From Kiritimatiellia bacterium (lineage in GTDB: Bacteria > Verrucomicrobiota > Kiritimatiellia > RFP12 > DVOR01): DNA of 64,000 nt. The position numbers and the translations under genes were made by a program. The notes under the pieces were generated by a model. It ran no database searches. It was not told the origin of the DNA and saw only the letters and a list, made by a program, of their open reading frames with translations. Numbering within the stretch: position 1 is the stretch's first letter; each line of letters starts with the position of its first letter. The DNA lies in contig JAVBMC010000028.1 of the NCBI GenBank assembly GCA_031552845.1, forward strand, positions 72,394 through 136,393, in the 5' to 3' direction. Below are positions 7,129-55,266 of the stretch, one piece after another.

Positions 7129-7619
7129 CGACTAGCGCGATGTCCATACGCCGTCCGCGGCTGGTATTTTCAATCGGTTCATTTTTCTCGCTCTTCTTCA
7201 GCGTCTCCGTATCTGCCGGGAGTTTCTTCGTTATTTTCAGGGGTCGTATATCAGGTGATATCGTGCTCATAAATCAGGTGATGTCGTACTCGTGTATCAA
7301 GTGATATGGTACCCCGAAAGAAGAGGAGTTTGCACACCTGGCAAATAACTGCTTCAGATACCTCTCCTATCCTCCGCGCCTCCGCGTGAGTTTTTTAGGT
7401 GTCGAGTAGTTTTAGGTATTGCTGCTGGCGTTCTTTGTTTTAATGCAGTATCGGAATGATATCAAACAAAAAAAGTCTTTTAATTCCGTATTGTTCCGAA
7501 TGGATTGCCGCACATATGTGTGTTTGAGCGAGTGTTTCTTGATGGTGGATGCGGGGCTGGTGGTGCGAGTTGCGTGTTTTGAGGTACATTTTGCGGGGGA
7601 GCGAATGGAGTATGTGGGA

Positions 7620-8788: not shown

Positions 8789-9039
8789 AGGATGAGCGGG
8801 CTCTATATTTGATGGCGGAAAGTAGGCTGTGACTGAAGATAGGTTTTATAATTCGGCAGATGCGGAGTGTTTGTGAAATAGAAGGTCGGTTTGGTCGCGA
8901 TGTTCATGCATTATATTCACCTTACGTTATTCTTCGCGACCGAGTCGAGCACATTAAAAGCTATAACCACGCGATTCATCCCCTATTATCTATTCTTTAT
9001 CACTTATTACTTCGCCTTTCATGTTGGAGTCCCCCGACG

Positions 9040-9420
9040 TAGCTCGGATATTTGTGTGAGCCGGGCGGGTATTTTGTCTGAGCCCAGTGTGAAAAATGTG
9101 TGAGCTGAGTCAATATTTTGTCTGAGCCGTATGGATAATTTGTGCGAGCCGGGCAAGAATTTTGTACCACGTGCCTCGCACAAATTCAACATGCGCGTTT
9201 TTCGAGCGTGTTATATCGTCCGTACTCGCGGAGCACGAATCATAATTTTGCGGGATACGTATCAGCGTACCACGCATCACGTATCATCCATTTGCGCATC
9301 ACGTGCTATCGTACTGCGGGATACGTGATATAAGTTTGTGTGTCACGTGACATCGTACCGGATGATGTGTGTCATCGTACTGCGGGACACGTGTCATCCG
9401 TTTGCAGTACACGTATCCTT
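9040..9420. repeat. AT-rich degenerate tandem repeats (TTTGTNNGAGCCGGGC units; cluster of CACGTG-centred palindromes)
   Basis: 9040-9170 holds 4-5 units ...tttgtgtgagccgggc / ttttgtctgagcc / tttgtgcgagccgggc. 9230-9420 holds repeated ...atcgtactgcgggaYacgtg..., cacgtgctat, gtcacgtgacat and gacacgtgtcat. GC content is far below the flanks. Confidence 0.6.
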
Positions 9421-10369
9421 GTGCTGAGAAGCGAAGTAATATGTAGTAGATTAGAGGCAATAAATTGAGCCGAAAATGTTATAATGCCCAATATATGTAG
9501 GTGTTTTGAAGGTAGGGAGGGGTTCACCGAAGGCAGGCGCAGAGGAGGATGGGTGTTACGCGGAGATGCTGAATAAGCGAGCTCCCAACCTGTCTCGACT
9601 TCTCCGAGTTCTTCGACTTCATCACCACTACGAATACGCAACACCGACACTGTCAACGAAAATGTAGGTGCTCCAAAAGAAGGCACAAGCCCGACTTCAC
9701 CGATTTTCGCCGACTTCATCGACATGCAAAGTAGCGCAACAGCGAACATCATAACAAGAGCAGATAATGTGAGTACAGTAAACATGATAAAAGAAAAGTT
9801 GAAAGGTGAAAGAAACGAGAGTCTCGTAGCAGGCTCGACCCAATAGCCTGTTTGTTGTTGATGGCTCCTTGGAGCTTAAGCTCTCGTATGTCGGGGGGCG
9901 GAGATTCGTATTGAACTCCGAGCCACAAGGTCCGAATCAGTGACGAGTCACTCAATGGGGTCAACAGGGATGCAGTTTAGCAGAATTAAGGAATAAGTCA
10001 AGAAGAGAAGCAATAGGTAATAAGTGATAGGTAATAAGTTGTTGAACAGGAGGGAATAGGATGAAGAAAATAAATGGAGAGGGGTAAGCAGGAAAGGCTC
10101 ACGCGGAGGTGCGGAGAGAGAGGGGAAGGGTATCCGCAGATTGCACAGATGCTCGCAGATGGGGGGTGAGAGGAAGGGAGAGAAGGGGCTAGGCGTGGTG
10201 TAGCGGTTTCGGCGAAACGCGCCCTACCTACTGACGCACGCCAAAGAATTCGCATAATGCCGGCGAGGACGTCGGGTGCTTTCAAGCGGCATAACCGGCA
10301 CGCGATTTCGTCGATTTCATAGGCTTCTGCAACAAGCCAACACACCCTGACTGATGGCGCGTCGAGGAG

Positions 10370-18656: not shown

Positions 18657-19539
18657 CCCTTTAAGCTACAAATATCTCGCATTGTCGCAAAAAAACGCTC
18701 CCAAAGCAAGCCCTAAATCTCAATGTGTAGCGGCAAGCTCACGCGGAGACGCAGAGGCGCGGAGAGAAAAGAGAAGAGGACACCAGCGATGAAGTCGACG
18801 AAAATCGGAGAAGTCGTGCTAAGAGAATATGGAGGGCGGCTTTGCCAAAACCGCCGACCTTTTTAATACGGCTAACGCAAACAAACTTGTGATGAACGCC
18901 TTAACCCTTCCAAAACGTTGTTTCGCCCGCTGTTCCCTGAAACGGATGGATTGGGTGCCACGTTCTTTCTTTTGCCACCATTTTTTATAGCCTCAATATG
19001 GCGTCAAAAACGAAGTGCTTTTGGGTTTGAAGGCACGTGCCTTCAACTTCAAAGGCACCTGTAATGTACTCTTACTTACACGTGTAACCAAACTTTACTT
19101 ACGCCTGTAAGTAGAACTCACTTGCACGTGCGAGTGAAGTTGAATACACCTCGATTTTGCATAGTGTAAAACAGAGAGTAAGGCTGGATCTTTAAATTAG
19201 GGAGTGTAGAGTTGCAAGGAGGCTTGTTTTGGCACGTTCGATTCCTTGATTGGTATCCTGTTACCTGTTTCTGCTGTTTGTTCGCTGAGCAATTGAAGTG
19301 AAAACTCAAAACCGGGCTGTTTGGGGGCATGTTGGAGAAGGTGATCGCGGTGCCCATGGAAGCAAGTTCGCAGGGTGTGCGATTTTGAATGTCTTGTCTT
19401 TTCTGCTTGCTATTGGCGGTTGGGTCTGTTACACTTGAGATTGTTGGAGGGATTATGCCGCGTGTCGGTAGGTGTGCATTGCGTGTCGGTTTTTGAGGCG
19501 GGGACGGTTAGAGAATTTTTCGATAAAGGATGGCACAGG

Positions 19540-25747: not shown

Positions 25748-28700
25748 ATGAAGCGGTTGTGTGTTGTGTTTTGTTTGTTGGCGTGGGGTGTTGGTGCGGT
25801 GCCGGGTGAGATTAAATTTACGCTCAAGGAGCCGCGGCATGTGACGCTGGCGGTGGATTCGGCGCAGGGGGTGCGCGTCCGGAATCTGTTGGCGGATACG
25901 CCGTATCCGGCGGGCGAACATACGGTGGAGTGGGATGGCCGCGATGATGCCGGGAAGAAACTGCCGCCGGGTGATTATAAGTGGACAGGGCTGACGCATG
26001 CACCGATTCATGCGCTGTATGAAGGTGCTTATTCCCACGGCACACCGCCGTGGTCGTACGGAACAACGGGCGGTTGGACGGCTGACCATAGTTACGTGGC
26101 GGCGATTGTCAATGCACAAGGCGTGATGCTGTTGGGCTCGACGGAGTCGGAGTGGGGCACCGGCGGGTTGATCGGCTGTACGCCTGATGGTCGCAAGCTG
26201 TGGGGTAAACGTTGGTTGGACGGCAAGCCGTGGGCGGGTGCTGACGCATTGGTGACGGACGGCAAGCGGGTCTTTGCCGGTTCGTATGTTCAGGCCGAGG
26301 GACCGGTGTGGGAGATAAATCCGTTGACGGGCGAGTGCAAAATTGTTTGGCAAGCGAAGGGTGATATTCCGGCGTCGTTGCGTAATGTGGTGGGTGCGCG
26401 TGAGGGATTGGAGGCGCCGCGTTTCCGCTTGGCGGGTTTTATTGACGATGAGCTTTTTCTGACGGATATCTTTGGCAAGCTGCCTTATACCTACGTTTTT
26501 AAAATCGGCACGGAGTTCGGCGCACCATTGACGTTTGACCGTGCTTTGAATGTGCGGGCTTGGCAGTTGATTAAAACTCCGGGCGGGCAGACGCTGGCGA
26601 TTGTCAACCGCCAGATTGTCGCGCTGGATACGAAGACCGGCTCCACGAAAGATTTCATTGCAACGGGTCTCTCCAATCCGTATGACCTTGTTGCCGCCGC
26701 CGATGGTACGCTCTATGTGTCTGACATGGGCGCCACGGGAATGCATGCTTTCAATCCTTACGCGCAGCTCAAAGAACGCGCATTGCATTTTGAGGGCGAA
26801 GCGTCGCATCAGATTAAGTTGTTCACTGTCGCCGGTAAACCGTTGTCAGTGTGGGGACGTAAAGGCGGACAGCAGCCGGGATTAGTCAACCCGAATGATT
26901 TCTGGCGGCCTGCTGGTTTGGCGTTTGATCCCAAGGGACGCCTTTGGGTGAGCGAGATGACGTATCAGCCCAAGCGCGTGAGCGTTTGGGAGCCTGCCGG
27001 TGCTAAGGGGAAACAGAAGTTGGCCGCACAGTTTATCGGCCCTGGCACTTATGGCGGCGGCGGCGTGATGGTAAATCCGGACAAGCCGTGGGAGATTATG
27101 GACACGAACTACGGCACGGTGTTTGATGTGAATCTGGACAAGCAGACGTATGATGCCGTGAGCTTTCCGTTTCGCCAGATTCTTGCCCGTAAAGAACATG
27201 CTGTGAATGAAGGGCTGCCATTTGACGGCAAACCGACGCGCGCTTTCCCGCTCGAAGGCCGTACCTTCGCGGTGATGCAGGGCGGATATGAACACGGCCC
27301 CGAGGCGACATGGGAACCATACTCCTGCACCGCCGCAGGCGTGGTCGGTATCGGCGAGTATACGAACAACGTCTTCCGTCCGCTGGGCGCGTTTGGCAAT
27401 GTCCCCTTTATTATCCGCATGCGCGAGCTTGATGCGCGCCGCGAAGTACAGTGGGTGCCGAAGGCGGTGATGACCGCGGCGAAGGCACTGCCCGACTGGC
27501 CGCGCTTGGCGCGTTCGGTTGGACTCAACCCTGCTGCAACGGACACGCTGCATCTTGAACACAAACGCGGCAGTCCCGATTGGATTGTCAACCCGTGGCC
27601 GCGTGAGATCGGCGGGTTTAAATGGACGGATGCCAATGGCGATGGTTCCATGCAACCCGAAGAGATTGTCTTCTTTCCGATGGGTGATGCCGACCGTGTG
27701 ACCTTCAGTGATAATCTGGATGTCTACCTGCCGCAACCCAAAAAGCATGGCGATGGAACGTTGGTATTCAAACGCGAAGGATTCAATGCCTGCGGTGCGC
27801 CAACTTATCCCGACAAGCCATCGCGTGTGCTTGCAGGCGTGACCGATGTCCGTTATATTGCGCCCGATGGTTCGCTCTTGACGATGAACTCGCTACGCGA
27901 CCGCGATGGCAAACCGGTTTGGACCTATCCGGCGGATCCGCGCGGCGCACGTGACCTCGGTGCTGAAGGCGAAAATTTGTTGGAGCGCGGCACCATGCAC
28001 CGTCTGCACGCGCTGCGCGGTGTGGCTCCGCTTGAAAAGGAGCAGGGCGACGTCATGTGCGTACAGTCAACGGATGGCATGCTCTACTTCCTCACGCGTG
28101 AAGACGGGCTGTTCATTACAACGCTCTTCCGTCCCTTTGCATTCGCGGCGGGATGGGACAGTATTCCGCAGGCGGCCCGCGGCATGCGGCTGGATGAGTA
28201 TTCCTTGCAGGACGAATGTTTCAACGGCTCGTTCCAACAAGCGCGCGCCTCCGGCAAAGGATTTGAAAAGGATGGCTATTATCTAATCGGTTTTGGGCGT
28301 TCGGCGATTGCGCGTGTGACGGGATTGGATAGCGTGACGCACCTGCCGGGCGGGACGGTTTCGTTGATGGAAGGGGTCGGGCTTTATGCCGCCGCACGTG
28401 TTGAGAAACCCAAAGGTGATTCGCTCAAGACCCGCGCCATTGACCGTGAACCGTTGGAAGTCAAATACGGCACGCCCCCACAGACTTGCATTTACATTGC
28501 GGGCAGTCCCATCCGTTTTGCGTGGGACAAGCGCGGCCTCATCATCAAGGCCGAGGTTGCCGATGTCACGCCGCGCCTGAACAAGAGCGGCGATCAGACG
28601 ATGCTGTTTGCGACGGGCGATGGCGTCGACCTCTTCTTCAAATCCCCCAAGTACAGACGCATCCGAATCGTGCTGGCACCCACGCCGCAAGCCATCGTGG

Positions 28701-29590
28701 CCGATGCGCACAGCCCCGGCATTGCCGTGCGTTACCATTATGACGGCGCACCGACGTCCTCCGCAGTTGCGTATAAGAGCGGTGTCGGGCAGGCCGATGT
28801 CACGGCAGTTGAAAAACTTGATGCCGATGTGCGCTTGCGTCCCATGCGCTCCGGCTATGTGCTCGAGACGATTCTCAGCTGGCAGGATCTCGGCATTGAC
28901 CCTGCCGCGCTGCCTGCCCCGGGAGGGAAGCAACTCAATCTCGATTTTGAAGCCGGCATACTCCAATCTGATGCCGCAGGTTCAAAGACCCAAAGCCGTT
29001 ATTATTGGAGCGGACACATCGGCATGGTGGCGGATATTCCCACCGAAGCCGCGCCGGTGCCCAACTGGGGCAAGCTGCAGATTTGCCCACCGCCTCCGCC
29101 GGAACCGCCTAAGCAACCTCCTGTCGCTGCACCTGTTGCACGCGTCGATTCGGCTGCGCCCGTCAAAATACATTATGGATTGCCGCATCAAACCGCCGTC
29201 AAATTCGGGCAAGACCCCATACGCCTTGCCTGGGACAAGCGGGGCTTAATTCTCAAGGCTGAGCTTTTGCGGGGGGACAGCAGCGACGGGTTTGAGTTGC
29301 AGTTCACACTCGCCGAAAAACCTGCGGCGCGTATCACCCTTCAACCCGGCACAGATGGGAAGGGTGTTGGCAAGTGTTACTCCGGTGCGGCATCCCAAGG
29401 GACAGTATTGAACAGCCCCATTCGCGTACGCGCCGTGCAGGCCGGATACGTGCTGGAAACAATCCTGACATGGGACGAAATGGGCGCAACGCCCCCCGGT
29501 ACCCCTACGGTTATATTACCCTGCCACATCAAAGCCATCGGCGGGACTATAAAGACCGATGCCTTGTTGGTTTTTGAGCCTCAGCCTTAG
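25748..29590 (+). CDS. Large secreted protein (1280 aa): N-terminal FlgD-Ig-like domain, beta-propeller-like repeats, two C-terminal CBM9/DOMON-like modules
   Basis: Signal peptide. HVTLAVDSAQGVRVRNLL...GEHTVEWDGRDDAGKKLPPGDYKW (FlgD Ig-like). NHL/propeller-like YDLVAAADGTLYVSDMG. Internal duplicate modules: ...IRFAWDKRGLIIKAEVADVTP...YVLETILSWQDLGIDPAALP and ...IRLAWDKRGLILKAELLRGD...YVLETILTWDEMGATPPG. Confidence 0.8.
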   Translation: MKRLCVVFCLLAWGVGAVPGEIKFTLKEPRHVTLAVDSAQGVRVRNLLADTPYPAGEHTVEWDGRDDAGKKLPPGDYKWTGLTHAPIHALYEGAYSHGTPPWSYGTTGGWTADHSYVAAIVNAQGVMLLGSTESEWGTGGLIGCTPDGRKLWGKRWLDGKPWAGADALVTDGKRVFAGSYVQAEGPVWEINPLTGECKIVWQAKGDIPASLRNVVGAREGLEAPRFRLAGFIDDELFLTDIFGKLPYTYVFKIGTEFGAPLTFDRALNVRAWQLIKTPGGQTLAIVNRQIVALDTKTGSTKDFIATGLSNPYDLVAAADGTLYVSDMGATGMHAFNPYAQLKERALHFEGEASHQIKLFTVAGKPLSVWGRKGGQQPGLVNPNDFWRPAGLAFDPKGRLWVSEMTYQPKRVSVWEPAGAKGKQKLAAQFIGPGTYGGGGVMVNPDKPWEIMDTNYGTVFDVNLDKQTYDAVSFPFRQILARKEHAVNEGLPFDGKPTRAFPLEGRTFAVMQGGYEHGPEATWEPYSCTAAGVVGIGEYTNNVFRPLGAFGNVPFIIRMRELDARREVQWVPKAVMTAAKALPDWPRLARSVGLNPAATDTLHLEHKRGSPDWIVNPWPREIGGFKWTDANGDGSMQPEEIVFFPMGDADRVTFSDNLDVYLPQPKKHGDGTLVFKREGFNACGAPTYPDKPSRVLAGVTDVRYIAPDGSLLTMNSLRDRDGKPVWTYPADPRGARDLGAEGENLLERGTMHRLHALRGVAPLEKEQGDVMCVQSTDGMLYFLTREDGLFITTLFRPFAFAAGWDSIPQAARGMRLDEYSLQDECFNGSFQQARASGKGFEKDGYYLIGFGRSAIARVTGLDSVTHLPGGTVSLMEGVGLYAAARVEKPKGDSLKTRAIDREPLEVKYGTPPQTCIYIAGSPIRFAWDKRGLIIKAEVADVTPRLNKSGDQTMLFATGDGVDLFFKSPKYRRIRIVLAPTPQAIVADAHSPGIAVRYHYDGAPTSSAVAYKSGVGQADVTAVEKLDADVRLRPMRSGYVLETILSWQDLGIDPAALPAPGGKQLNLDFEAGILQSDAAGSKTQSRYYWSGHIGMVADIPTEAAPVPNWGKLQICPPPPPEPPKQPPVAAPVARVDSAAPVKIHYGLPHQTAVKFGQDPIRLAWDKRGLILKAELLRGDSSDGFELQFTLAEKPAARITLQPGTDGKGVGKCYSGAASQGTVLNSPIRVRAVQAGYVLETILTWDEMGATPPGTPTVILPCHIKAIGGTIKTDALLVFEPQP

Positions 29591-29636
29591 CGGCGATATC
29601 AATTAGTGGCATTTGCGACGGGTGTTACCCATCCGC

Positions 29637-29738
29637 GGGCTTGTAAGCCCGCGAGTGTAGGCTTGTAAGCCCGTTGGAGCGGGCTTATAAGCCCCTGAGT
29701 GTGGGCTTGCAAGCCCGTGGATGCGGGGTTCGAAGCCC
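29637..29738. repeat. Tandem array of 5 x 22-bp units each containing the palindrome GGGCTT-NN-AAGCCC
   Basis: Palindrome centres at 29643/44, 29665/66, 29687/88, 29709/10 and 29731/32, exactly 22 bp apart: gggcttgtaagccc, aggcttgtaagccc, gggcttataagccc, gggcttgcaagccc, ggggttcgaagccc. Confidence 0.85.
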
Positions 29739-29920
29739 GTGAAATGCAAGCGTATGGATGGCGGAATGTTAGGAGCACATTTTCAGGCGGTTGTTGCCTG
29801 TATTTCGAATACGCCGACGTTATCTGCGCAAGCTGCTGAAGTTGACCCGAAATAGGGTTTCTCCTCTGTTGCAAGGATAATTCATGTTCCATTTTAGTAG
29901 GTGAAAGTCAGTTTTGTGGG

Positions 29921-29949
29921 TTGCCTTATCGGTGGAGGTGTGTTATACT
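29921..29949 (+). promoter_or_regulatory. Sigma70-like promoter (-35 TTGCCT, 17 bp, -10 TgtTATACT) for the paralog operon
   Basis: ttgccttatcggtggaggtgtgttatact lies ~120 nt upstream of the ATG at 30071. Confidence 0.5.
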
Positions 29950-30070
29950 CCGTATGTTTTCGACAGACAGAAAAGCGAGAGGACATATAGTGCGTTTGGC
30001 GGGGGGCTGCTGGCGCGCGGAATCTGCCGAAAGCCATGGGGTAACTGTACCTTATTATAAAGGCTGTATT

Positions 30071-33000
30071 ATGAAACGAAATGTATTGTTAGTCTCCGCT
30101 TTAGCGCTTGTTTCAATGTGCCATGGTTTTACGATGCCTGTGTGGGAGGTTGGGACGATTACCGGTGATACCGACGTCATTTCCGAAGGGACAACGGTTA
30201 CGGCGTATGCAGTTGGCGGCGCGACGGAGGTGAATGGCGTGAGTTTTGTGAAGACGCCGAACAACGGTAATACGAGCGTTCAATATTGGGGGACTTATTT
30301 GACCGTCAATATCGGCATTCGGGGAACGCGCGCTTATTCGGCTACACGCGGTACCCCAAGCGGAATGAGTGAGGCTTATGTTACGATGTTGCGGGGAGAG
30401 CTGATGGCGTATACGGATGCGAACTCGACCTTTGAGGCGGAGGGAGTGATTCAGCTGCAGGGCTTGATTCCGGGCGCGCAATATATTTTGCAGGTGTGGT
30501 GTAATGATAGCTCAGGGTCGTCATCCGCCTCGCGGCAGACGATGTTGATTGCGAATATTTTTGATGCAACAGTGACGGTGCGGCAGAACATGGAGGCGAA
30601 GGCAGGAGGGGCGGGGCAGTATGCTGTTTTGCGCTTTACGGCCCCGGCGACTGCGCTGACGATCGATTTGACGGCTCCGCATGTGATCGGGGCAACGGAT
30701 GCTATTTTGATTTCCGCGATTCAGTTGCGGGAGGTTGCTGCTACGACGCCGAATGCCTATGCGTGGAGCGGTGGCGTTAATAATGTTTGGGCGGCGGATG
30801 ATTTAAACTGGGGCGGCGATGGGGCGCAGGCGCCTTGGGCAGTTGGCAGCGGCACGGAGGCGATGGCGTTGATTTATCCGCCGCAACCCACCACCACCAC
30901 GGTATTGCGGGTGGAGTCGACCATTGAAGCGGGAGTGGTGTCTTCAGTGGGCAGTACAGTTTTGCAAGGCAACGGGATGTTGAATACCACAGCTGCCGTG
31001 GTTGATAGCGATCTGCTTGCAGATGTGCGCGTGCAAACGGATGTGTTGCAAAAACATGGCGGCGGCGTGTTGTCGTTTGTCAATCCGTTAGGGCATGCAG
31101 TAGGTGTACTGGCGGTTTCAAACGGTGCGGTGCGCTTGTCGCCACTGCCGATATTTGGCGGTCTGACGACCCACTTGGATGCGTCCGATATCACGAGCAT
31201 GGATGTTGACGCGAATGGCGGCGTGGTAGCGTGGCGGTCGGTGAATGGAGCTCCGGCGCGTTATACGTTCCCGACTGCCGATGCAGCCACGTTTGTTCCG
31301 CCGGTGTATGCGGCGGATGCGTTTGGCGGACGCGGTGGCGTACGGTTTGGTTCCGAGGGGCCGTCAAAGTTGACGTCGACAGTAACAACAAATGCCCGCA
31401 GCGTTTTCTTGGTGATGAAGCTGAGTGTATTCAAGGACTATCAAGAGGTCTGGGGGATTAATGCGCAAAACAGTGATACGATCCGCGGTATACGGTTGTG
31501 GGGAGCAGGCTCGCCGAACAACATGAAGTGGTTTACTGACCGTGGCAATACAACCGGCGGGAATGGAGTATTGAACGATGAAGAGCTGTTCTGGGTAGAT
31601 GGAGTTTGGAGCGAAAATTATCCATTGGCGTCGACAACGGCAGCGCAGGTGTTGAGTTTGCAAACGAGCGGCGGCGCGGTGGGTAAGTATTTTGCGATGG
31701 GGTCGTATTTTTATGCGTCGGCTAATCGGACTGGACGGTATCTGCAAGGTGATGTGGCGGAATTGATTGTGTATGACCGGTTGTTGTCGAGTGCTGAACG
31801 GCAGGTCATTGAACAGTATTTGATTGCCAAGTGGGCGGGAGCTGAGCGGCAGAGTCTGGCGGCGAATATTTTGTCGGACTCCATGAAAGTGATTGTGGAG
31901 GCGCAGGGGACTTTATCGCTGGATGGCGTTTCGCAAGAGGTGAGCGGCTTGTCTGGAGACGGCACGGTTGCCGCTACGGCTCCGGCGGAGTTGGTCGTGA
32001 ACACAACACAGGATGCGGTGTTTAATGGGGCATTTAAAGGGGCGTTAAATGTCCGCAAGCAAGGCACGGCGGCGTTGAAATTGTTGGGCAGCAGCACTCA
32101 CAGTGGCATGTTGGATATCCGTGAGGGCAGCGTCATCGCGGGGCAGGAGTTCCCTACGGAGGGTTTGTTGTACCGCTTGGATGCGGGTCGCCCAGAAACG
32201 TTGACTGTAAATGCATCCGGGCAGGTGTCGGCATGGGCTGACTCGCAAGCCGACAGCACTGTGGTGTTCAGTCAGGCCAACGCGGCGACTCAGCCGGATT
32301 ATGTGCCAAGTGCTTTTAACGGCCAGGGTGGCGTGCGTTTTGGTGCAGAAGGGAAAGTAACCTCGTTGGAATATGACCAGAGCACTGTGAATAAGACGGT
32401 GTTTCTGGTGGTGTATACCGAGTCCACCACGGTTGAGTTTGCGGGCGTGTGGGGGAGTTGTGCCAGTGGACAAAATGTAGGATTCCGTTCAAGCGGAACT
32501 GCAACCTCAGGCGGGTATGGCGCTTCAAACCAATGGGGATTCGCAAAGGGGAGTTCCGGCGACTTTGTTCCAGATAACAATAACGGGTCTTTCCGGACAA
32601 ATGGTGTTGCGGTGGGTAATGTAGGTCCCGTTATTCCGGAGTTTGAGGTACAGGTAATCGCACTGAATCGTAAGACGGCGTCTACCTTTGCCCAGACGGC
32701 TGTCGGCGAATATTATTGGGAGGGCGAACGGCCTTACATGGGTATTATCGGCGAAGTGATTGTTTACGACCGTGACCTGACGGCGGACGAGTTTGCTCAA
32801 GTAGAGGGGCTGTTGATGTTGAAGTGGGGGGCACGAAAGGAGACTGCGGCATCGCACTTGTCGTCCTCGTCGGGGTTGGTAATGACAAAGGGTACGGTCT
32901 TGGATTTGAAGGGGAGCGATCAGGCGGTGCGCAGTTACAGCGGTGCCGGGCAAGTGGTGAATGGGCGTTTGATTGTCAGCGAACAGGTCACGGCTACGGG

Positions 33001-33277
33001 GGATGTCGGTATATTCGGATTACCGCAAACTATTCATGTCACGTCGCCTGTTGGCTTGATCAGCATATCTGGTGCCGGAGATTTGAGTACTGTGACCGTT
33101 ACTGTTGATACGGACAGTCTCAAGATCGGCCAGCGCTACCCGATTCTCTTGTGTGATGGTGAGTTTACAGGACTGCCCGTTGTGTCGGGCGTGAATCCGG
33201 ATGTCTGGATGATTCGGCGTATAGGCGATGTGGTTGAGCTGTTCTCCAAAGGCGGCATGGTATTGCAGTTGTTTTAA
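30071..33277 (+). CDS. Giant secreted protein, paralog 1: N-terminal jelly-roll-like domain, autotransporter-associated beta-strand repeats, two LamG-like (concanavalin A-like) domains, conserved C-terminal module
   Basis: The start is set at the internal Met (30071) that precedes a signal peptide MKRNVLLVSALALVSMCHG. LamG signatures VAELIVYDRLLSSAERQVIEQYLIAKW and IGEVIVYDRDLTADEFAQVEGLLMLKW. Beta-strand repeat VRKQGTAALKLLGSSTHSGMLDIREGSV. C-terminus ...ELFSKGGMVLQLF. Confidence 0.8.
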   Translation: MKRNVLLVSALALVSMCHGFTMPVWEVGTITGDTDVISEGTTVTAYAVGGATEVNGVSFVKTPNNGNTSVQYWGTYLTVNIGIRGTRAYSATRGTPSGMSEAYVTMLRGELMAYTDANSTFEAEGVIQLQGLIPGAQYILQVWCNDSSGSSSASRQTMLIANIFDATVTVRQNMEAKAGGAGQYAVLRFTAPATALTIDLTAPHVIGATDAILISAIQLREVAATTPNAYAWSGGVNNVWAADDLNWGGDGAQAPWAVGSGTEAMALIYPPQPTTTTVLRVESTIEAGVVSSVGSTVLQGNGMLNTTAAVVDSDLLADVRVQTDVLQKHGGGVLSFVNPLGHAVGVLAVSNGAVRLSPLPIFGGLTTHLDASDITSMDVDANGGVVAWRSVNGAPARYTFPTADAATFVPPVYAADAFGGRGGVRFGSEGPSKLTSTVTTNARSVFLVMKLSVFKDYQEVWGINAQNSDTIRGIRLWGAGSPNNMKWFTDRGNTTGGNGVLNDEELFWVDGVWSENYPLASTTAAQVLSLQTSGGAVGKYFAMGSYFYASANRTGRYLQGDVAELIVYDRLLSSAERQVIEQYLIAKWAGAERQSLAANILSDSMKVIVEAQGTLSLDGVSQEVSGLSGDGTVAATAPAELVVNTTQDAVFNGAFKGALNVRKQGTAALKLLGSSTHSGMLDIREGSVIAGQEFPTEGLLYRLDAGRPETLTVNASGQVSAWADSQADSTVVFSQANAATQPDYVPSAFNGQGGVRFGAEGKVTSLEYDQSTVNKTVFLVVYTESTTVEFAGVWGSCASGQNVGFRSSGTATSGGYGASNQWGFAKGSSGDFVPDNNNGSFRTNGVAVGNVGPVIPEFEVQVIALNRKTASTFAQTAVGEYYWEGERPYMGIIGEVIVYDRDLTADEFAQVEGLLMLKWGARKETAASHLSSSSGLVMTKGTVLDLKGSDQAVRSYSGAGQVVNGRLIVSEQVTATGDVGIFGLPQTIHVTSPVGLISISGAGDLSTVTVTVDTDSLKIGQRYPILLCDGEFTGLPVVSGVNPDVWMIRRIGDVVELFSKGGMVLQLF

Positions 33278-33306
33278 ACATAGGTGAGAAATATAGGAAG
33301 CAGATT

Positions 33307-36300
33307 ATGAACTGGAAAACGATAGTCGGGATTGTTGTATTGACGGCGGGAGCAGTGTTTGCGTGGCCGCAGTATTCGTGGCAGATGGGTGATGTGACTG
33401 CGGATACGGATGTAGTGACAGAGGGGGAACTCATTGCGGCGTATGCTATCCACGCGGCAACAGAGGTCAATGGCGTGCCGTTTGAAAAGGGATCTGCTCC
33501 TAAAAGTTCCATTAATTGGGGTAGTGCATTTACGGTTAATATTGGATATGTCGGCACACGTGCGCCAGATGAGAATCGCGCGAAACCTGAGGATATTTTG
33601 CCGGCCGTAGCAGAGATTTCGGCTGGGTACCGTAGTCTGTTGTCAGGAGTTATTCTGGCAAATAATCAGTGGGCGGATGAGTTTTCTCCGCAGGGCAGGA
33701 TTACAATTCGCAATTTGACTCTCGGTTCAGTTTATCTGTTGCAGGTGTGGTGTAGTGATCCGTCTGCGTATGCTGCGGAACGGCGGATGATTCTTTCGAC
33801 AGATGTGCTTCCTTCTTCTGTGGAGATGCGGGAGAATGTGACAGGAGGCAATGGGGGCGCGGGGCAGTGGGCTATTTTAAAATTTGTTGCATTGGGGCCG
33901 GAGCAATCGGTGTATTTGTCTGCTCCGGTGACAACGGCAACGGATGCAATTGTCTTGACGGCATTGCAGTTGCGCAAGATTGCTGATTCGGCACCTGGGA
34001 CCGGCACCTTTATTTGGTCCGGTGGTTATTGGGGAGTTTGGGATAAGTCGGATTTGAATTGGGGCGGCGATGGCGAAGCGATGCCATGGATCGTTGGTTC
34101 GTCATCCCAAGGGGTGAGTAACACGGCTGTGGTGATGCCGTCGTCGGCAGATGGTTATGGAATTGAGCTGAATGTGCTGGAGGATCTTGAAGCGGCGGCA
34201 TTTGTTGCATCTTCGGGTGGTCCGGTGACGATGATTGGTGAAGGGTCAATGAGTACGCCGCTTATCGCTGCCGGAACAAATTTGTTTGTGGGTACGCGTT
34301 TGAAGGCGGAGTTGCTGGCGAAGCATGACCTTGGAACACTGCAATTGATTGCTGCGCCACTGGCACATGAGATCGGAGCATTGGATGTGAATAAAGGTAC
34401 GGTGGCGTTGGTGCCGTATCCGAATGTGACAGATGGGGCTATGTTTCATTTGGATGCCTCAGCACGTGAGAGCATTGTCATGGATGCAAACGGCCGTGTG
34501 AGTAGCTGGCGTTCAATTGGCGGGGTCAGTAACGTGAGTTACGATTTTCCGCCGGATGATCCTTCGGAGTTCGTGATGCCCTTGTATAACGCATCTGAGT
34601 TTGACGGTAAGGGCGGAATTGTATTCGGCACGCAAGGCCCAAGCAAGTTGTTGGCTTCGACAAGAATGCGGGTGAAAACGGTTTTGATGGCCGTGCAGAT
34701 CAGGGAGTTTGCCGATTTTCAAGAGGTGTGGGGGGTTAATGGAACAGAGAATGCTTTTCCGCCTGCGGTAAAGTTGGGTGGCTCTGGATGGGGGGGGCGC
34801 GATAAGTGGTTTGGCGATAGCAGCAACCCGGCTATTTTTTGCGATGAAACGAACTTTTGGGTCGATGCAAGCGAGAAGCTGCCTTATCCGCCTGCATTGC
34901 TCACGGAGCCACAAGTGGTGACGTCACTGGCTCGTGCACGGGGGGAAGCGGTCAATAACAAGATCTTTGCCTTGGGGTCGGTTGATTTTCGTTCAACATA
35001 TCGGCAAAGCAGATATTTGCGCGCAAGCATTGCTGAGGTGATTGGTTTTGATCGTGATTTGAGCCGTGCAGAGCGGGCTGCATTGCAGACGTATTTGACC
35101 GCCAAGTGGAAACAGAATGCATTTTCGGTTGTGGTGACAAACTTGTTGCCCGCCAGTATTAAGGTGAATCTGGCGGAGGGTGCTTCGTTGCGGATTGATC
35201 AGGCGCATCAGAACGTTTCAACTTTGACGGGGAGCGGAAAAGTTACCGGTCAGGGAAGAGGAGCAACTTTGGTTGTCGATATGCTGCAAGACGCCAAGTT
35301 TGATGGCACGTTTGAGGGTGGTCTCAGCCTGTATAAACAGGGGAGCGGCGTATGGACGCTGGCGGATAAGGTCAATACGTTGAGCGGCCCCTTGTCGGTG
35401 CAAGCCGGTACGCTAAAGTTGGGAACTATTCCAGCGGTACCAACGGATGGATTGGTTTATTGTATAGATGCCAGCAAGCCTTCGACATTGGTCGTTGATG
35501 CGGATTCTAAAGTTTCGATCTGGCGGGATGTGCGTCCAAGTAGCACAATGGCATTTCGGCAGAGTGACCCGGCTGCTCAGCCGACTTATGATCCAGCGGC
35601 TTTCTATGGCCTAGGTGCCGTGCGGTTTGGTGCAGACGGCCAAGTTACATCATTGCTTAATGAACGGGTGACGACTAATCAAACAGTTGTAATTGTAGCA
35701 TGGACGGAAAACCGTGAGATTCCATATGCCGGTGTCTGGGGGCTCAACAATGTTAACTATGGTTTTCGTGCCGCCGGGTCAGCCTATTCGAGTGGCTCTT
35801 CAAGGCAATGGGCGTATGGGGCCGGTAATTCTGGGGATTTCCTGACGGATTCTAAGGGGGGTATTTTCCGTATCAATGGCAGTACGACTGGCGGTTTGCC
35901 ATCTGTCGCGGAGAGTATCCCGCAGGTGATTTTAATGAATCGCGTGACTCCCAGCAATTTTACTGCGACGGCGATTGGCAAATATTGGGATGCCACGCCG
36001 ACACGGCAGTATGCAGGCTGCATTGGCGAGATATTGGTGTATGACCGCCGCTTGACGGAAGATGAGTATCTTCAGTTGGAACAAACGCTGATGAAAAAAT
36101 GGAGTGCCTCCTCACGCAGTCTGATCAAGGTTCTTCCGGGTGCGATTGATATTGAAGTCGCCGCAGGTGCAACGCTCGACTTGGGAGATCGCGAACAAAC
36201 AGTCAATAGCTTTAGTGGTGGAGGTGCAGTTGTAAATGGACGCTTGTTTGTTTCTGGTACCATCACGCCGACTGGTGCAATTGAGGTCGTCAACATTCCG

Positions 36301-36552
36301 CTTGCGTTGCATATAGAATCGCCTGATGCAAAGGTGACGATTGCTGCCAACGGTGATTTGAGCACAATGACAATCACGATTGATAAAGACAAGCTAGAGC
36401 TGGGTACTCGTTATCCAATTATTATTTGCAATGGTGACCTCACCGGCTTGCCGGTGCTTGAAGGCGTCAACACGCTTGTGTGGAAAGTGCGCCGCGTGGG
36501 TGATGTGATTGAACTCTATTCGATTGCCCGTACTGTGCTGGAGCTATTCTAA
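33307..36552 (+). CDS. Giant secreted protein, paralog 2 (same architecture)
   Basis: 1081 aa. Signal peptide MNWKTIVGIVVLTAGAVFA. Same domain order as paralog 1. LamG motifs IAEVIGFDRDLSRAERAALQTYLTAKW and IGEILVYDRRLTEDEYLQLEQTLMKKW. C-terminus ...IELYSIARTVLELF. Confidence 0.8.
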   Translation: MNWKTIVGIVVLTAGAVFAWPQYSWQMGDVTADTDVVTEGELIAAYAIHAATEVNGVPFEKGSAPKSSINWGSAFTVNIGYVGTRAPDENRAKPEDILPAVAEISAGYRSLLSGVILANNQWADEFSPQGRITIRNLTLGSVYLLQVWCSDPSAYAAERRMILSTDVLPSSVEMRENVTGGNGGAGQWAILKFVALGPEQSVYLSAPVTTATDAIVLTALQLRKIADSAPGTGTFIWSGGYWGVWDKSDLNWGGDGEAMPWIVGSSSQGVSNTAVVMPSSADGYGIELNVLEDLEAAAFVASSGGPVTMIGEGSMSTPLIAAGTNLFVGTRLKAELLAKHDLGTLQLIAAPLAHEIGALDVNKGTVALVPYPNVTDGAMFHLDASARESIVMDANGRVSSWRSIGGVSNVSYDFPPDDPSEFVMPLYNASEFDGKGGIVFGTQGPSKLLASTRMRVKTVLMAVQIREFADFQEVWGVNGTENAFPPAVKLGGSGWGGRDKWFGDSSNPAIFCDETNFWVDASEKLPYPPALLTEPQVVTSLARARGEAVNNKIFALGSVDFRSTYRQSRYLRASIAEVIGFDRDLSRAERAALQTYLTAKWKQNAFSVVVTNLLPASIKVNLAEGASLRIDQAHQNVSTLTGSGKVTGQGRGATLVVDMLQDAKFDGTFEGGLSLYKQGSGVWTLADKVNTLSGPLSVQAGTLKLGTIPAVPTDGLVYCIDASKPSTLVVDADSKVSIWRDVRPSSTMAFRQSDPAAQPTYDPAAFYGLGAVRFGADGQVTSLLNERVTTNQTVVIVAWTENREIPYAGVWGLNNVNYGFRAAGSAYSSGSSRQWAYGAGNSGDFLTDSKGGIFRINGSTTGGLPSVAESIPQVILMNRVTPSNFTATAIGKYWDATPTRQYAGCIGEILVYDRRLTEDEYLQLEQTLMKKWSASSRSLIKVLPGAIDIEVAAGATLDLGDREQTVNSFSGGGAVVNGRLFVSGTITPTGAIEVVNIPLALHIESPDAKVTIAANGDLSTMTITIDKDKLELGTRYPIIICNGDLTGLPVLEGVNTLVWKVRRVGDVIELYSIARTVLELF

Positions 36553-36576
36553 TTGTAACTGAGAAGGACTAAAAAG

Positions 36577-39500
36577 ATGAACTGGAAAATGCTTGCGGGC
36601 GTAGCTTTGCTGAGTGCTGGTGTCGCTTGGGGACAGATTGGGTCTGTCTGGCAGTCTGGAGATATCACGGGTGATTCGGATGTGGTGACGGAGGGAGAAC
36701 TGCTCGCGGCGTATGCGGTGAGTGCCGCGACAGAGGTGAATGGTGTCGCATTTGCAAAACCGACTGCTTATAATACGAATGCATGTGCATGGGGTACTAT
36801 GTTCACAATGGACATGGGGTACTATGGAACTCGTAGTCTTAATACAGCTCGTGGAACGCCAACAAATCCGGAGTTGAGCAACGCGTACATTACTCTATTA
36901 AAAGGCATGACATATGCTAGTAATAGTCAAAGTGATTTGCTGTCGCCCTTGGGGCGCGTGACCATTCAAAACTTAAAACCGGGGGCTGTTTATTTGGTGC
37001 AGATTTGGAGCAGCGATTCTTCGGAGTGGTCCACGACCAATCGTCTGACAACTTTCACAGCGTCATCAACCATTTCACCCTCGGTTTCGGTTACGGTGCG
37101 GCATAATTTAACTGCAGCAAAGGGTGGCACGGGACAGTACGTTGTGCTACGGTTCACGGCGACAGCCGAACAGCATATGATTGAAATGTCAGCGCCGGAT
37201 TTTGCAAATTCGGTTGAGGCCATTGCGCTGAGTGCGATTCAGCTGCGGAAGTTGGCGGATTCGACAGAGGGGGTATCTGCTTGGCAGCAAGAATTGAATG
37301 AAGCTGAGTGGGATGTGACAGACCGCAACTGGGGTGGAGATGGCGAGACGGTGCTATGGTCGGCTGAGGCCGGAGCAGGCCGCGCAGGCGTTATGGCGGT
37401 GTCGGGAACAACGGATGGACTGATAACGGTCAACTCTGATGTGACAGCAGGTACGATTTATGCCTCAGGCGGATTCCAAACACTGCAGGGGACAGGCAGT
37501 TTGAAGGTGTCGCAGATTAATTCGGCAGGTGTGTTGTCGATTCAGGTGCCGTTGATGGGCGATTCGCTTTTGAAAGATGATGCGGGCTCATTGTTCTTCT
37601 TGAAGTCGGACGTTCCACACCAAACCAAGCGGATTACGGTGGATAATGGTTCTGTGATTTTAGGAGGCTTGCCGAGCTTCTGGGAGAATAGCGTTTTCCG
37701 TTTGGACGCTTCCATGCCGGATAGTATTGTACGAGATGCCAATGGCGCGATCAGCAGCTGGAAGTCAGTTGGAGACGTGACATTAAGTTATGATTTTACG
37801 GAGGCGATGGATGCGGACTTTGTCAAGCCGGTGTATGATGCCAATGCATTTGGCGGTAAGGGTGGTGTTGTATTCGGCGCTAACGGCCCCTCTAAATTAT
37901 TGTCGTCGCTGCCGGTGACGGTGCGGACTGTTTTTGCGGTGATGCACTTTGATACATTTGCCGATTACTCAGAAGTCTGGGGCATTAATGGTTTGGACAA
38001 CAATACAGTGCGCGGTATTCGTTTGGCAGGGAGCACTACCGCTACGAGCGCGAAGTGGTATCAAGATGCATCGAACACTGGCAACTTCAATGAGACTGAT
38101 TGCTTCTGGGTGGATGGGGTCGCCTCTACGACTTATCCGGAGGCATCCTTGACCGAGCTACAGGTGGTGACAGCGACGAGCCGGGTGAGAAATGATTCGG
38201 TAGATAAGCTTTTTGGGTTGGGGTCATACAGTTTTTTGCCGGCTAATCGTACAGGGCGCTATCTGCAGGGACGTATTGCTGAGGTTGTCGGATTCAGCCG
38301 TGACTTAACCCGCTCGGAGCGGATTGCTGTCGAAGAGTATTTGAGGACTAAGTGGCAGCAGCCGGTGACACGGCACAACCTGTTGCCCATTGACACAAAA
38401 ATCACGCTTGAGGAGAAAGGCGTGCTGCAGCTGAGTAACGTTCCGCAAGAGCTGGCTCAGCTCAGCGGTAACGGTTCGGTGGTTGCCTCGGAGCCGGTGA
38501 ATGCATTGATTGTCAATGCCGTTGAGGATCATGCGTATGCAGGCACAATTGCCGCCAATGTGCGTGTTGAGAAAAAAGGCCCCGCCTTGTGGCAACTGTC
38601 GGGCGATAAAACATTTCACGGCATACTTGCCATTCAAGAGGGAACGGTCATGGCGGGTATCGACTGTTCTTTGCCTGAGGATGGGTTAGCGTATCGAATT
38701 GATGCTTCGAGGAGTAGTACGTTGACGCATGATGAAGAAGGCAAAGTCTCTGCATGGCGGGATGCGCGTCCCGATAGTTCGGTGGTCTTTCGGCAAGAAA
38801 ATGCGGAAGCGCAACCCATTTATACTCCTACGGCATTTGGCGGTATTGGTGGAGTACGGTTTGGAACGGATGGGCGGGTCACTAGTTTGATCAACTCACA
38901 AAGTGCAAGTATCAAAACCGTCTTCATTGTTGCATGGACAGAGAAGGCCAATATTGAATTTGCGGGCATCTGGGGTTCTGCAGGGGCTAACTTGGGGCTG
39001 CGCGCTGCTGGTTTAGTGATCCACAACAGCAAATCAACCCAGTGGGCGTTTAACCTGTTTAACAGTGCTGACTTCATTGAAGGCCCAACGAAAGGATTAT
39101 TTCGTTCCAACGGAGTGACGCTGACAAGCACGCCCACAATTCCGCTCGGACAACCGCAGTTGATTATGCTGAAGCGTGATGCAACGGCAACGTTCCCCGG
39201 GACTGCTATCGGCAAATATTGGGATGCTACGCCAACGCGGCAATATACGGGCTATATTGGCGAGATACTCGCTTACGATAGAGACTTCACGGAGGAAGAG
39301 TACGAGGCTGTTGAACAGGCGCTCATGATGAAATGGGGTTTGGTTGAGCAAAAGCTGACGCAATGTTTTGCACCGGAGGCCAGTCTTGAGATCGCAACCG
39401 GTGGCACCTTGCATCTCGCCGGTACTGAACAAAAGGTGACTAACTATAAGGGTGCCGGAGCCATCATCAATGGTGAGTTAATTGTGACAGGAACAGTCAC

Positions 39501-39786
39501 GCCGACCGGTGCGGTGGAGATCTTTAACATTCCGGCTGAACTTGCCGTGATATCCCCGAATGGCAATCTAAAGATTTCTGCGGATGGCGATTTGAGCACG
39601 ATGATTATTACGATTGATAAAGATAAACTGGTGCTGGGCGCCCGCTATTCAATTATCACGTGTAATGGTGAGTTGACTGGCCTGCCCGTGGTGTTCGGTG
39701 TAAATCCTGAGGTTTGGATGGTCAGGCGTGTGGGTGATGCGATTGAATTATATTCGATCGCACCCACGGTGTTAGAGTTATTCTAA
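36577..39786 (+). CDS. Giant secreted protein, paralog 3 (same architecture)
   Basis: 1069 aa. Signal peptide MNWKMLAGVALLSAGVAWG. LamG motifs IAEVVGFSRDLTRSERIAVEEYLRTKW and IGEILAYDRDFTEEEYEAVEQALMMKW. C-terminus ...IELYSIAPTVLELF. Confidence 0.8.
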   Translation: MNWKMLAGVALLSAGVAWGQIGSVWQSGDITGDSDVVTEGELLAAYAVSAATEVNGVAFAKPTAYNTNACAWGTMFTMDMGYYGTRSLNTARGTPTNPELSNAYITLLKGMTYASNSQSDLLSPLGRVTIQNLKPGAVYLVQIWSSDSSEWSTTNRLTTFTASSTISPSVSVTVRHNLTAAKGGTGQYVVLRFTATAEQHMIEMSAPDFANSVEAIALSAIQLRKLADSTEGVSAWQQELNEAEWDVTDRNWGGDGETVLWSAEAGAGRAGVMAVSGTTDGLITVNSDVTAGTIYASGGFQTLQGTGSLKVSQINSAGVLSIQVPLMGDSLLKDDAGSLFFLKSDVPHQTKRITVDNGSVILGGLPSFWENSVFRLDASMPDSIVRDANGAISSWKSVGDVTLSYDFTEAMDADFVKPVYDANAFGGKGGVVFGANGPSKLLSSLPVTVRTVFAVMHFDTFADYSEVWGINGLDNNTVRGIRLAGSTTATSAKWYQDASNTGNFNETDCFWVDGVASTTYPEASLTELQVVTATSRVRNDSVDKLFGLGSYSFLPANRTGRYLQGRIAEVVGFSRDLTRSERIAVEEYLRTKWQQPVTRHNLLPIDTKITLEEKGVLQLSNVPQELAQLSGNGSVVASEPVNALIVNAVEDHAYAGTIAANVRVEKKGPALWQLSGDKTFHGILAIQEGTVMAGIDCSLPEDGLAYRIDASRSSTLTHDEEGKVSAWRDARPDSSVVFRQENAEAQPIYTPTAFGGIGGVRFGTDGRVTSLINSQSASIKTVFIVAWTEKANIEFAGIWGSAGANLGLRAAGLVIHNSKSTQWAFNLFNSADFIEGPTKGLFRSNGVTLTSTPTIPLGQPQLIMLKRDATATFPGTAIGKYWDATPTRQYTGYIGEILAYDRDFTEEEYEAVEQALMMKWGLVEQKLTQCFAPEASLEIATGGTLHLAGTEQKVTNYKGAGAIINGELIVTGTVTPTGAVEIFNIPAELAVISPNGNLKISADGDLSTMIITIDKDKLVLGARYSIITCNGELTGLPVVFGVNPEVWMVRRVGDAIELYSIAPTVLELF

Positions 39787-44878: not shown

Positions 44879-44989
44879 ATTCTCTCCTTGCGTTTTGGAA
44901 AAAGAAGAGAAGGGGAAGACACCAGCGTTCATCGCGGGGTTTTCCACACGCTCTCCATTCTCCGTGGGTGTGTGTTCGGGCGGGGCAGG

Positions 44990-45155
44990 TCTTCTGGCTC
45001 GGGCTTATCCACGGCGCCTTCCCGGGATGACTCCCAGTGGCTTGATGCCGTAGCTATATTGCCCTCACAGCGGCGGGACCGCGAAGGTTTTGCACCTTCT
45101 TCCCTTTTCACCGGCGTTTCCGCCGGACCTCGTCCGATACGCCATTTGGCGTATG
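44990..45155 (-). promoter_or_regulatory. Cobalamin (B12) riboswitch in the nrdDG leader
   Basis: The minus strand reads ...ggtgaaaagggaagaaggtgcaaaaccttcgcggtcccgccgctgtgagggc...ggcatcaagccactgggagtcatcccgggaaggcgcc. Core GGTGaAAAGGGAA...GGTGCAAAACC...CCCGCCgCTGT and B12 box AAGCCACTGGGA...CCGGGAAGGC are both present. Confidence 0.75.
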
Positions 45156-45161
45156 GGTTGG

Positions 45162-45190
45162 AGTATATCCTGTTTTGGTGAGCAAGGCAA
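45162..45190 (-). promoter_or_regulatory. Sigma70-like promoter for nrdDG (-35 TTGCCT, 17 bp, -10 TATACT)
   Basis: The minus strand reads cttgccttgctcaccaaaacaggatatactcc. The hexamers and 17-bp spacing are identical to the 29921-29949 promoter. Confidence 0.5.
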
Positions 45191-45302: not shown

Positions 45303-45424
45303 TGTAACGTTGCTTTCTGCGGGCAGTAACATTACTTAGCGTTGTCAGCAACGTTACTTCCTGTGCTGAGTAACATTACTGCCAGTCATAAGTAACATTG
45401 CTCATGGTTGTGAGTAACGTTACT
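45303..45424. repeat. Tandem array of 6 x 22-bp units each containing the 12-bp palindrome AGTAAC|RTTRCT
   Basis: Palindromes at 45303-45314, 45325-45336, 45347-45358, 45369-45380, 45391-45402 and 45413-45424. Centres are exactly 22 bp apart. Located between the aroKB stop and the nrdD promoter. Confidence 0.85.
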
Positions 45425-45472
45425 CACGTTCCTGTTACGGGGCTAAAAGAGGTGTGTGAGCCAAGTGAGGGA

Positions 45473-54888: not shown

Positions 54889-55146
54889 ACCTGCTCCTAC
54901 AACACAAAAGGCAACAAGTATAACAAAACTCCCCCCACAAAGCCACCAAAACACCACCCCCGTGCCAAAAAACAAGCCCACTTTACCGATGGTACGCCAG
55001 ACCACCTGATTTCCCCCTGTCACCGCCTGCTTCCTGAAACAGATTGCGGCTTCTGTTTCGCCGCCTTATACGCCGTTTATTGTCTGCAAGACCTTCCCTT
55101 TTCGCTGCCTTCTCGACTCCTTTTCGCATCACACCTACGATCGGAG

Positions 55147-55215: not shown

Positions 55216-55266
55216 TCTCATCCTAGAGGCACTCCAGTCACACTGCAAAAACACCTCAGCCGACAG

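Follow-up and report, generated by a model that had tools for sequence, protein, structure and literature searches.

An intergenic array of palindromes at an exact 22-bp step in a Kiritimatiellia bacterium, and six further arrays at 22/23-bp steps in the same 64 kb

Introduction

Phage operators, plasmid iterons, the operators of ArsR/SmtB and ArgR, and short intergenic palindromic repeats are the described systems that come closest to the element reported here, an array of GGGCTT-NN-AAGCCC palindromes (array E, positions 29637-29760) in a 64,000-nt stretch of contig JAVBMC010000028.1 from a Kiritimatiellia bacterium (GenBank assembly GCA_031552845.1), hereafter called the window. A 14-bp dyad followed by about 8 bp is the geometry of operators of the phage 434/lambda type, in which the dyads span 14 bp (434 OR1-3) or 17 bp (lambda OR/OL). 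Spacers of free sequence, 6-8 bp long, set the centres of these lambdoid operators about 22-24 bp apart, and neighbouring dimers bind cooperatively. The iterons of plasmids such as R6K, RK2, pPS10 and pSC101 occur as three to seven sites with a classical spacing of 22 bp, at which the bound proteins are aligned. ArsR/SmtB operators have a 12-2-12 structure with a 6-2-6 core, and ARG boxes are palindromes about 21 bp apart that are occupied by one oligomer of ArgR. Among the intergenic repeats, repetitive extragenic palindromes (REPs) with their BIME composites and GTAG-tagged palindromes such as the Stenotrophomonas SMAG clusters (PMC3733652, PMC2613905) are short palindromes that can be arranged head to tail. 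Such elements are able to stabilise upstream mRNA or attenuate transcription.

Array E shares features with each of these systems and departs from all of them. It resembles the lambdoid tandem operators in its 14-bp dyads, spaced by exactly 22 bp from centre to centre; those operators, however, come in threes, overlap the promoter and adjoin the repressor gene, whereas array E comprises 5.5 sites, lies 183 bp off the nearest promoter match, and has no helix-turn-helix (HTH) gene among the flanking open reading frames (ORFs). The 22-bp spacing is that of iterons, and three other arrays of the window (A, B and G, described below) consist of direct repeats of the iteron type. In contrast to iterons, which are direct repeats bound by Rep monomers and accompanied by a rep gene, an AT-rich unwinding element and DnaA boxes, array E is palindromic and its orientation is undefined. 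No Rep domain was detected in the window ORFs, and the neighbours of array E are gyrB, secreted-protein genes and housekeeping genes. The 6-2-6 geometry of ArsR/SmtB operator cores matches that of array E; this match and the palindromic ARG-box arrays are taken as leads only, with no claim of sequence similarity, and those systems use one or two sites that overlap the promoter. REP/BIME elements fall into one or a few families that comprise hundreds of dispersed copies, bear a conserved GTAG/CGTC tag and go together with a RAYT gene, whereas the arrays of the window have private motifs and no dispersed copies in the 64 kb. Searches of the literature turned up no account of arrays of this kind, whether in Kiritimatiellia or in other organisms.

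From the sites, their phasing, the selective conservation of their arms and the presence of further arrays of the same step, we infer that array E would be a phased array acting at the DNA level, bound cooperatively by a dimeric, sequence-specific protein and having a regulatory effect. We put this forward tentatively, as a reading with nearly, though not quite, an even chance of being correct.

Results

Array E consists of five palindromes in strict phase

Pattern search and coordinates bore out the five palindromes described in the initial annotation, at a step of exactly 22 bp (Table 1); three are exact and two carry one mismatch. Each 22-bp unit is made up of a 14-bp palindrome followed by an 8-bp spacer. 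Unit 1 together with its flanks forms a longer dyad with arms of 9 bp (CGCGGGCTT-GT-AAGCCCGCG), and an inverted repeat of 21 nt (90%; 29630-29650 / 29703-29723) encloses units 1-4. At up to one mismatch, the search of the 64 kb returned the five phased sites and no further copy, and at two mismatches it returned three matches, all located within genes. The chance expectation for the palindrome in the window was 0.12 +/- 0.36 copies, and none of 100 dinucleotide shuffles reached five.

Tandem Repeats Finder reported a period of 22 with 4.8 copies and 72% matches, and a 44-bp super-period gave a better value of 83%. The array was organised as (A B)(A' B') A'' followed by a degenerate half-unit, the letters here denoting unit types, such that odd and even units formed two subtypes; the spacers 1/3 and 2/4 were likewise related via the 44-bp duplication. 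The two subtypes indicate that a block of two units was duplicated as the array grew. The 22-bp step had been equated with two helical turns that place every site on one face of the DNA. This holds only at a helical repeat of 11.0 bp, whereas at 10.5 bp per turn the sites rotate by about 34 degrees per unit.

Arms and spacing are conserved while spacer sequences diverge

Mismatches in array E were much rarer in the arms (2/60) than in the centre and spacer (17/50; Fisher p = 2e-5), and the 14-bp cores had a mean pairwise identity of 0.84, compared with 0.47 for the spacers. In array F, the sister array described below, mismatches amounted to 7/72 in the core versus 25/60 in the spacer (p = 3e-5), the spacer identity of 0.38 being near random. 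The core was also better conserved than the spacer in array B (p = 0.005). The length of the spacer was invariant at every junction of array E, and equally at those of arrays F (5 junctions), B (4) and C (7). The fixed length of spacers whose sequence has diverged indicates selection on phase. Both arm substitutions of array E were uncompensated and nothing covaried; the change in unit 2 produces an A-C mismatch on the sense strand. Uncompensated arm changes combined with a fixed step point to base-specific recognition and not to a constraint on structure only. Array E is real, non-random and selectively constrained: as in the sister arrays, a 12-14-bp core and the core-to-core distance are constrained, and the intervening sequence is free.

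Seven intergenic arrays of the window share a 22/23-bp step

The whole window was scanned for periodicity by calculating the match fraction at lag p over three periods, for periods of at least 15. Seven intergenic arrays (A to G, Table 1) were found, and the scan matches were all located at 22, 23 or 44 bp, with no array of any other period of at least 15. Block-shuffled windows gave 0.28 periodicity matches per window, every one of which was at periods 15-18. When the arrays were masked, no residual 22-bp autocorrelation was detected in the intergenic DNA of the window. Of the 6.9 kb of intergenic DNA, about 19% belongs to the seven arrays, which are present in 6 of the 10 intergenic regions of at least 300 bp. 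The genes beside them are functionally unrelated. Each motif is private to its own array, except for TCAsGTGnnATCGTAC, which is common to arrays A and C, and the cores of the six arrays other than E measure 12-20 bp. In array D the flanks vary symmetrically around CACGTG, with too few units for significance.

Array E may be one member of a lineage-specific class not described before, in which most long, promoter-bearing intergenic regions carry private 12-14-bp cores, palindromic or direct, at a 22/23-bp step, although we consider this somewhat unlikely. Such a class would imply either an expanded family of filament-forming regulators, with one oligomerisation geometry and diversified specificity, or an array-building mechanism with a 22-23-bp molecular ruler. 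Array E alone is of moderate interest, and the occurrence of private-motif 22/23-bp arrays as a class is the more notable result.

The region of arrays A to C showed further features. The motif common to arrays A (7250-7318) and C (9290-9380) is in the same orientation in both and flanks rhuM (7620-8618), which adjoins the type I restriction-modification genes hsdS (2066-3241) and hsdM (3232-5748). Arrays B and C are exactly bracketed by an inverted repeat of 20 nt with 17/20 matches (ACTTATTACTTCGCCTTTCA and its complement, 9002-9021 and 9425-9444), which outlines a 443-bp unit like a small non-autonomous mobile element; no other copies occur in the window. An ORF of 137 aa on the minus strand (9372-9785) matched no family, its 3' end is overlapped by array C over about 50 nt, and it may not be a real gene.

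Array F repeats the layout of array E, but most of its units lack stable hairpins

Arrays E and F are laid out in the same way, with a stop codon, a short gap, dyads at 22 bp, and 110-183 bp to a TTGCCT-17-TATACT promoter. Array F begins 38 nt after the stop codon of aroKB (minus strand) and lies about 110 bp upstream of the promoter at 45190-45162 (minus strand), which precedes a cobalamin riboswitch and nrdD. The TTGCCT-17-TATACT sequence had two matches in the window (29921-29949 on the plus strand and 45162-45190 on the minus strand), as against 0.07 expected, and each sits downstream of one of the two 22-bp palindrome arrays E and F. The two matches also share adjoining bases (TTGCCTT-N16-TATACTCC), and TATACT was the -10 hexamer of other promoter matches in the window as well. 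Folded as RNA, 5/6 units of array F gave only 0 to -1.7 kcal/mol. As the dyads of array F are conserved yet do not form hairpins, they point to a dimeric DNA-binding protein, and by analogy such a protein is the most economical explanation for array E. When the doublet pattern of array F was searched in viral contigs, two unrelated matches were obtained, one of which was apparently in coding sequence.

The cobalamin riboswitch (123 bits; 44967-45147, minus strand) was the sole match of Rfam 15 in the window at the gathering score. It immediately precedes nrdD-nrdG, the genes for the anaerobic ribonucleotide reductase, an arrangement that suggests B12-dependent control of a B12-independent reductase.

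Relatives and database comparisons

The named GyrB homologs belonged to Kiritimatiellia, with the best non-self match being 78% identical. A 193-kb NCBI contig and a Logan contig (run SRR23967709) both encode the exact 1280-aa protein found upstream of array E, and the collections searched contained no closer relative. The next homologs of this protein were at most 49% identical and not syntenic, and the GyrB relatives (71-78%) were not syntenic downstream of gyrB.

The doublet pattern of array E had one match in 185,579 species genomes, a chance occurrence in a Clostridia metagenome-assembled genome, and no match in viral contigs. In metagenome contigs it was found at 14 loci, mostly as isolated doublets. 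Two loci, L007 and L016, were real arrays, built similarly but in unrelated context, and were treated as analogues, not homologues, of array E. The former, on a 1.25-kb contig, has seven exact copies of GGGCTTNNAAGCCC and a degenerate one at 20-22-bp steps (130-290); the copies sit in longer G/C-clamped palindromes (GGGGGGCTTNNAAGCCCCCC), and no convincing genes were seen nearby. L016 (REGX01204518.1) carries arrays of 25, 22 and 22 bp at 9-196, 337-635 and 1738-1878 within a 2-kb non-coding stretch that adjoins an HU-HIG gene and a PstI-type restriction-modification pair. Its middle array, composed of GGCWTYCAAGCC and TTGTTCTCAN in about ten units, is similar to array E in design and unrelated to it in sequence.

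Known elements that did not account for array E

CRISPR arrays combine repeats of 23-55 bp with spacers of 21-72 bp. Array E has a 14-bp repeat and an 8-bp spacer, no Cas domain was detected by Pfam on 37 window ORFs, and the spacers are block-duplicated and not acquired. The initial annotation was right to reject CRISPR on account of the short units, but its statement that spacers are lacking was wrong, as there are variable 8-bp spacers of fixed length. An intrinsic terminator was rejected since the hairpins have no U tract: no terminator-like site was found in 29300-30300 on either strand, nor was there a T run after any unit of array E. No sigma-54 enhancer was identified, TGGCAC-N5-TTGCW being absent from 29739-30071 at up to two mismatches and its window-wide count lying below the shuffle mean. 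A CsrA sponge was dismissed on five GGA motifs in or after array E (plus strand), compared with about three expected from a rough base-composition estimate. A tandem promoter was likewise rejected: the sequence TTGTAA-N17-TATAAG over units 2-3 was not reported in the promoter scan and does not have the final T of the -10 hexamer.

Genes and promoters around array E

The window is chromosomal and contains gyrB, mutL, hom, lysC, pfk, era, asd, aroKB, nrdDG, bioB and birA. The flanking distances given in the initial annotation were accurate: the stop codon of the 1280-aa gene ends at 29590, 47 bp before the array, and the promoter stated to lie about 180 bp beyond it was located 183 bp after the last palindrome. 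The downstream genes had been labelled as LamG paralogs, for which Pfam gave no support, finding no LamG domain. The three tandem paralogs (30071-39786) are 41-45% identical to each other, have signal-peptide-like N-termini, and gave weak matches to autotransporter-type beta-strand repeats (PATR) only. Canonical terminators are present elsewhere in the window. With no intrinsic terminator between the upstream stop codon and the downstream promoter, array E is probably transcribed.

Table 1. Positions of the seven arrays, the units of array E and its neighbouring features in the window
Feature	Position	Strand	Period (bp)	Description
Array A	7250-7318		23	Three 23-bp direct repeats, ATCAGGTGATATCGTACTC...
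Array B	9050-9159		22	Five direct repeats, ATTTGTGTGAGCC, with 9-bp spacer
Array C	9247-9422		22; 44 (super-period)	Eight ACGT/CACGTG-centred dyads
Array D	19026-19140		~23	Five CACGTG-centred palindromes, up to 20 bp; divergent intergenic region
Array E	29637-29760		22	GGGCTT-NN-AAGCCC with 8-bp spacer; 5.5 units x 22 bp, 44-bp higher-order repeat
Array F	45303-45434		22 (exactly)	Six 12-bp palindromes of AGTAACGTTACT type with 10-bp spacers
Array G	55146-55237		23	About four 23-bp direct repeats, GTCCCATCCTCTCTACAATGCGA; between divergent hom and another gene without assigned function
Array E, left flank	29626-29636			CCCATCCGC; complementary to the GTGGATG spacer after unit 4 and to GGATGG after array E
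Array E, unit 1	29637-29650			Palindrome GGGCTTGTAAGCCC; spacer GCGAGTGT
Array E, unit 2	29659-29672			Palindrome AGGCTTGTAAGCCC, one arm mismatch (G1>A); spacer GTTGGAGC
Array E, unit 3	29681-29694			Palindrome GGGCTTATAAGCCC, perfect 14-bp dyad; spacer CTGAGTGT
Array E, unit 4	29703-29716			Palindrome GGGCTTGCAAGCCC, perfect 14-bp dyad; spacer GTGGATGC
Array E, unit 5	29725-29738			Palindrome GGGGTTCGAAGCCC, one arm mismatch (C4>G); spacer GTGAAATG
Array E, degenerate sixth half-unit	29745-29760			TGCAAGCGTATGGATG; 81% identity to unit 4 right half plus spacer (TGCAAGCCCGTGGATG)
Upstream gene	25748-29590	+		1280-aa protein; signal-peptide-like N-terminus, FlgD_ig, NHL
Promoter match	29921-29949	+		Sigma-70 type, TTGCCT-17-TATACT; 183 bp past unit 5
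First paralog	30071-33277	+		First of three paralogous ~1070-aa genes; signal-peptide-like N-terminus
Second paralog	33307-36552			
Third paralog	36577-39786			

Discussion

Three candidate explanations had been offered in the initial annotation: binding sites for a dimeric regulator, an RNA hairpin array and a REP-like element. Binding by a dimeric protein is the best supported of them, on account of the arm conservation, the fixed spacer length, and the geometry of array F with units too weak for RNA hairpins. In this model each GGGCTT-N2-AAGCCC dyad (6-2-6) would be the site of one dimer, and five, possibly six, dimers would lie side by side at the 22-bp step, touching each other and forming a cooperative nucleoprotein stretch of about 110-125 bp. 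Array E would thereby control the boundary between the 1280-aa gene and the downstream paralog operon. It might tune the downstream promoter from a distance in the style of an upstream activator or a silencer, or it might form a roadblock against transcription that reads through from the 1280-aa gene, an option raised by the lack of an intrinsic terminator; the two may also be combined.

Several observations weigh against a protein-binding platform. The -35 hexamer is 183 bp away from the array, too far for a simple repressor or a class I/II activator, no sigma-54 promoter was found near it, and scans with Pfam and NCBIfam detected no regulator or HTH protein in the neighbouring ORFs. The step of 22-23 bp slightly exceeds two turns of relaxed B-DNA. 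Seven private motifs need several proteins with one common step, which is not parsimonious. The Logan contig, whose DNA is 100% identical to the window across array E, is the only other copy and belongs to the same strain. Related Kiritimatiellia contigs, compared through their homologs of the 1280-aa protein, their NrdD (78-88% identity) or their GyrB (71-78%), had no such array in about 110-120 kb of distinct sequence. In one of them (L022, 170-650), where NrdD is 88% identical, the riboswitch is preceded by an ordinary terminator and promoter with a different upstream gene and no array, so that array F is not conserved at that evolutionary distance. The absence of the arrays from relatives indicates that they are young and dispensable, which fits a mutational or mobile origin too.

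An RNA element is an alternative that we regard as unlikely. Array E would then be the 3' untranslated region (3'UTR) of the 1280-aa gene, folding into five stem-loops or one long composite hairpin that shields the upstream mRNA from 3' exonucleases or attenuates transcription running on into the downstream operon, in the manner of the REP/BIME elements of E. coli. The start of the array 47 nt past the stop codon and the lack of a terminator between the stop and the array or after it, in a window with canonical terminators elsewhere, are consistent with this proposal, and so are the folding energies on the plus strand: -110 kcal/mol for the 210-nt region (z = -7.8), and -16.4, -4.4, -9.0, -8.2 and -8.5 kcal/mol for units 1-5. 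The minus strand, however, folds nearly as well (-85 kcal/mol, z = -6.8) and the energies per unit are strand-symmetric; the minimum free energy of the whole region favours the plus strand, but the shuffles shift likewise. The arms are conserved in sequence, without compensatory or G-U changes and with the A-C mismatch of unit 2 on the sense strand, and hairpin arrays do not need a strict 22-nt spacing. A permissive Rfam scan of 29500-30100 yielded weak matches to eukaryotic microRNA precursors and other small RNAs, far below the gathering scores. Array F has the same layout but 5/6 of its units cannot fold stably, and arrays D and G are located in divergent promoter regions, not downstream of any gene, so that a role as 3'UTR is not the common denominator of the class. 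The hairpin candidate draws on the missing terminator and on units that fold at -4 to -16 kcal/mol; the lack of strand asymmetry and covariation and the arrays in divergent promoter regions speak against it.

That the arrays are by-products, with no or incidental function for the host, also appears improbable. A lineage-specific mutational or mobile process, either slippage with a fixed ruler or the decay of mobile-element ends with subterminal 22-23-bp binding repeats as in Mu, Tn7 and Tn552, would seed private arrays in tolerant intergenic DNA. Seven private-motif arrays in 64 kb, all at 22/23 bp, beside unrelated genes and covering about a fifth of the intergenic DNA, agree with such a process, as does the lack of arrays in the related contigs. 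Growth by duplication of blocks is visible in the 44-bp higher-order repeats, an inverted repeat encloses arrays B and C as in a small mobile element, and the motif common to arrays A and C occurs on both flanks of rhuM. Neutral decay should nevertheless be uniform, whereas conservation of the cores exceeds that of the spacers 2- to 10-fold in arrays E, F and B, and the spacer lengths never drift. The units are old (72-83% identity) and not recently expanded, and the scan of window ORFs detected neither a transposase nor an integrase domain. We are also unaware of any mechanism that would produce a 22-23-bp ruler, which counts against this explanation. A far less probable alternative is that the palindromes come from a genome-wide REP/BIME-like family whose members a RAYT (Y1 transposase) mobilises or maintains and which here form a head-to-tail cluster. 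They are indeed short, GC-rich and intergenic between co-directional genes, unit 2 starts with GTAG-GCTT, and Stenotrophomonas SMAG repeats are reported to form head-to-tail clusters of 22-25-nt palindromes (PMC2613905, PMC3733652). The REP-like candidate is poorly supported all the same: there are no other copies at up to one mismatch in the 64 kb, the stems are just 5-6 bp, and the GTAG tag occurs in 1/5 units, with units 1, 3, 4 and 5 reading GCGG, GCGG, GTGG and GCGG. No Y1_Tnp domain was detected in the window ORFs scanned, and the doublet pattern, mostly isolated in metagenomes, is nearly absent from the 185,579 species genomes, its one match there being due to chance.

If the arrays are protein-binding platforms, this lineage would organise many promoter regions by long, strictly phased arrays of sites, an arrangement that, to our knowledge, is usually confined to phage switches, plasmid origins and centromeres. 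If, instead, they are repeat-generating by-products, the fixed ruler would point to a new mutational or mobile mechanism. The shared 22/23-bp step combined with private motifs makes the arrays a natural test case for helical phasing and cooperative oligomerisation in the evolution of binding sites, and the regulatory reading, if true, would open a way into gene regulation in a phylum for which genetics is almost lacking.

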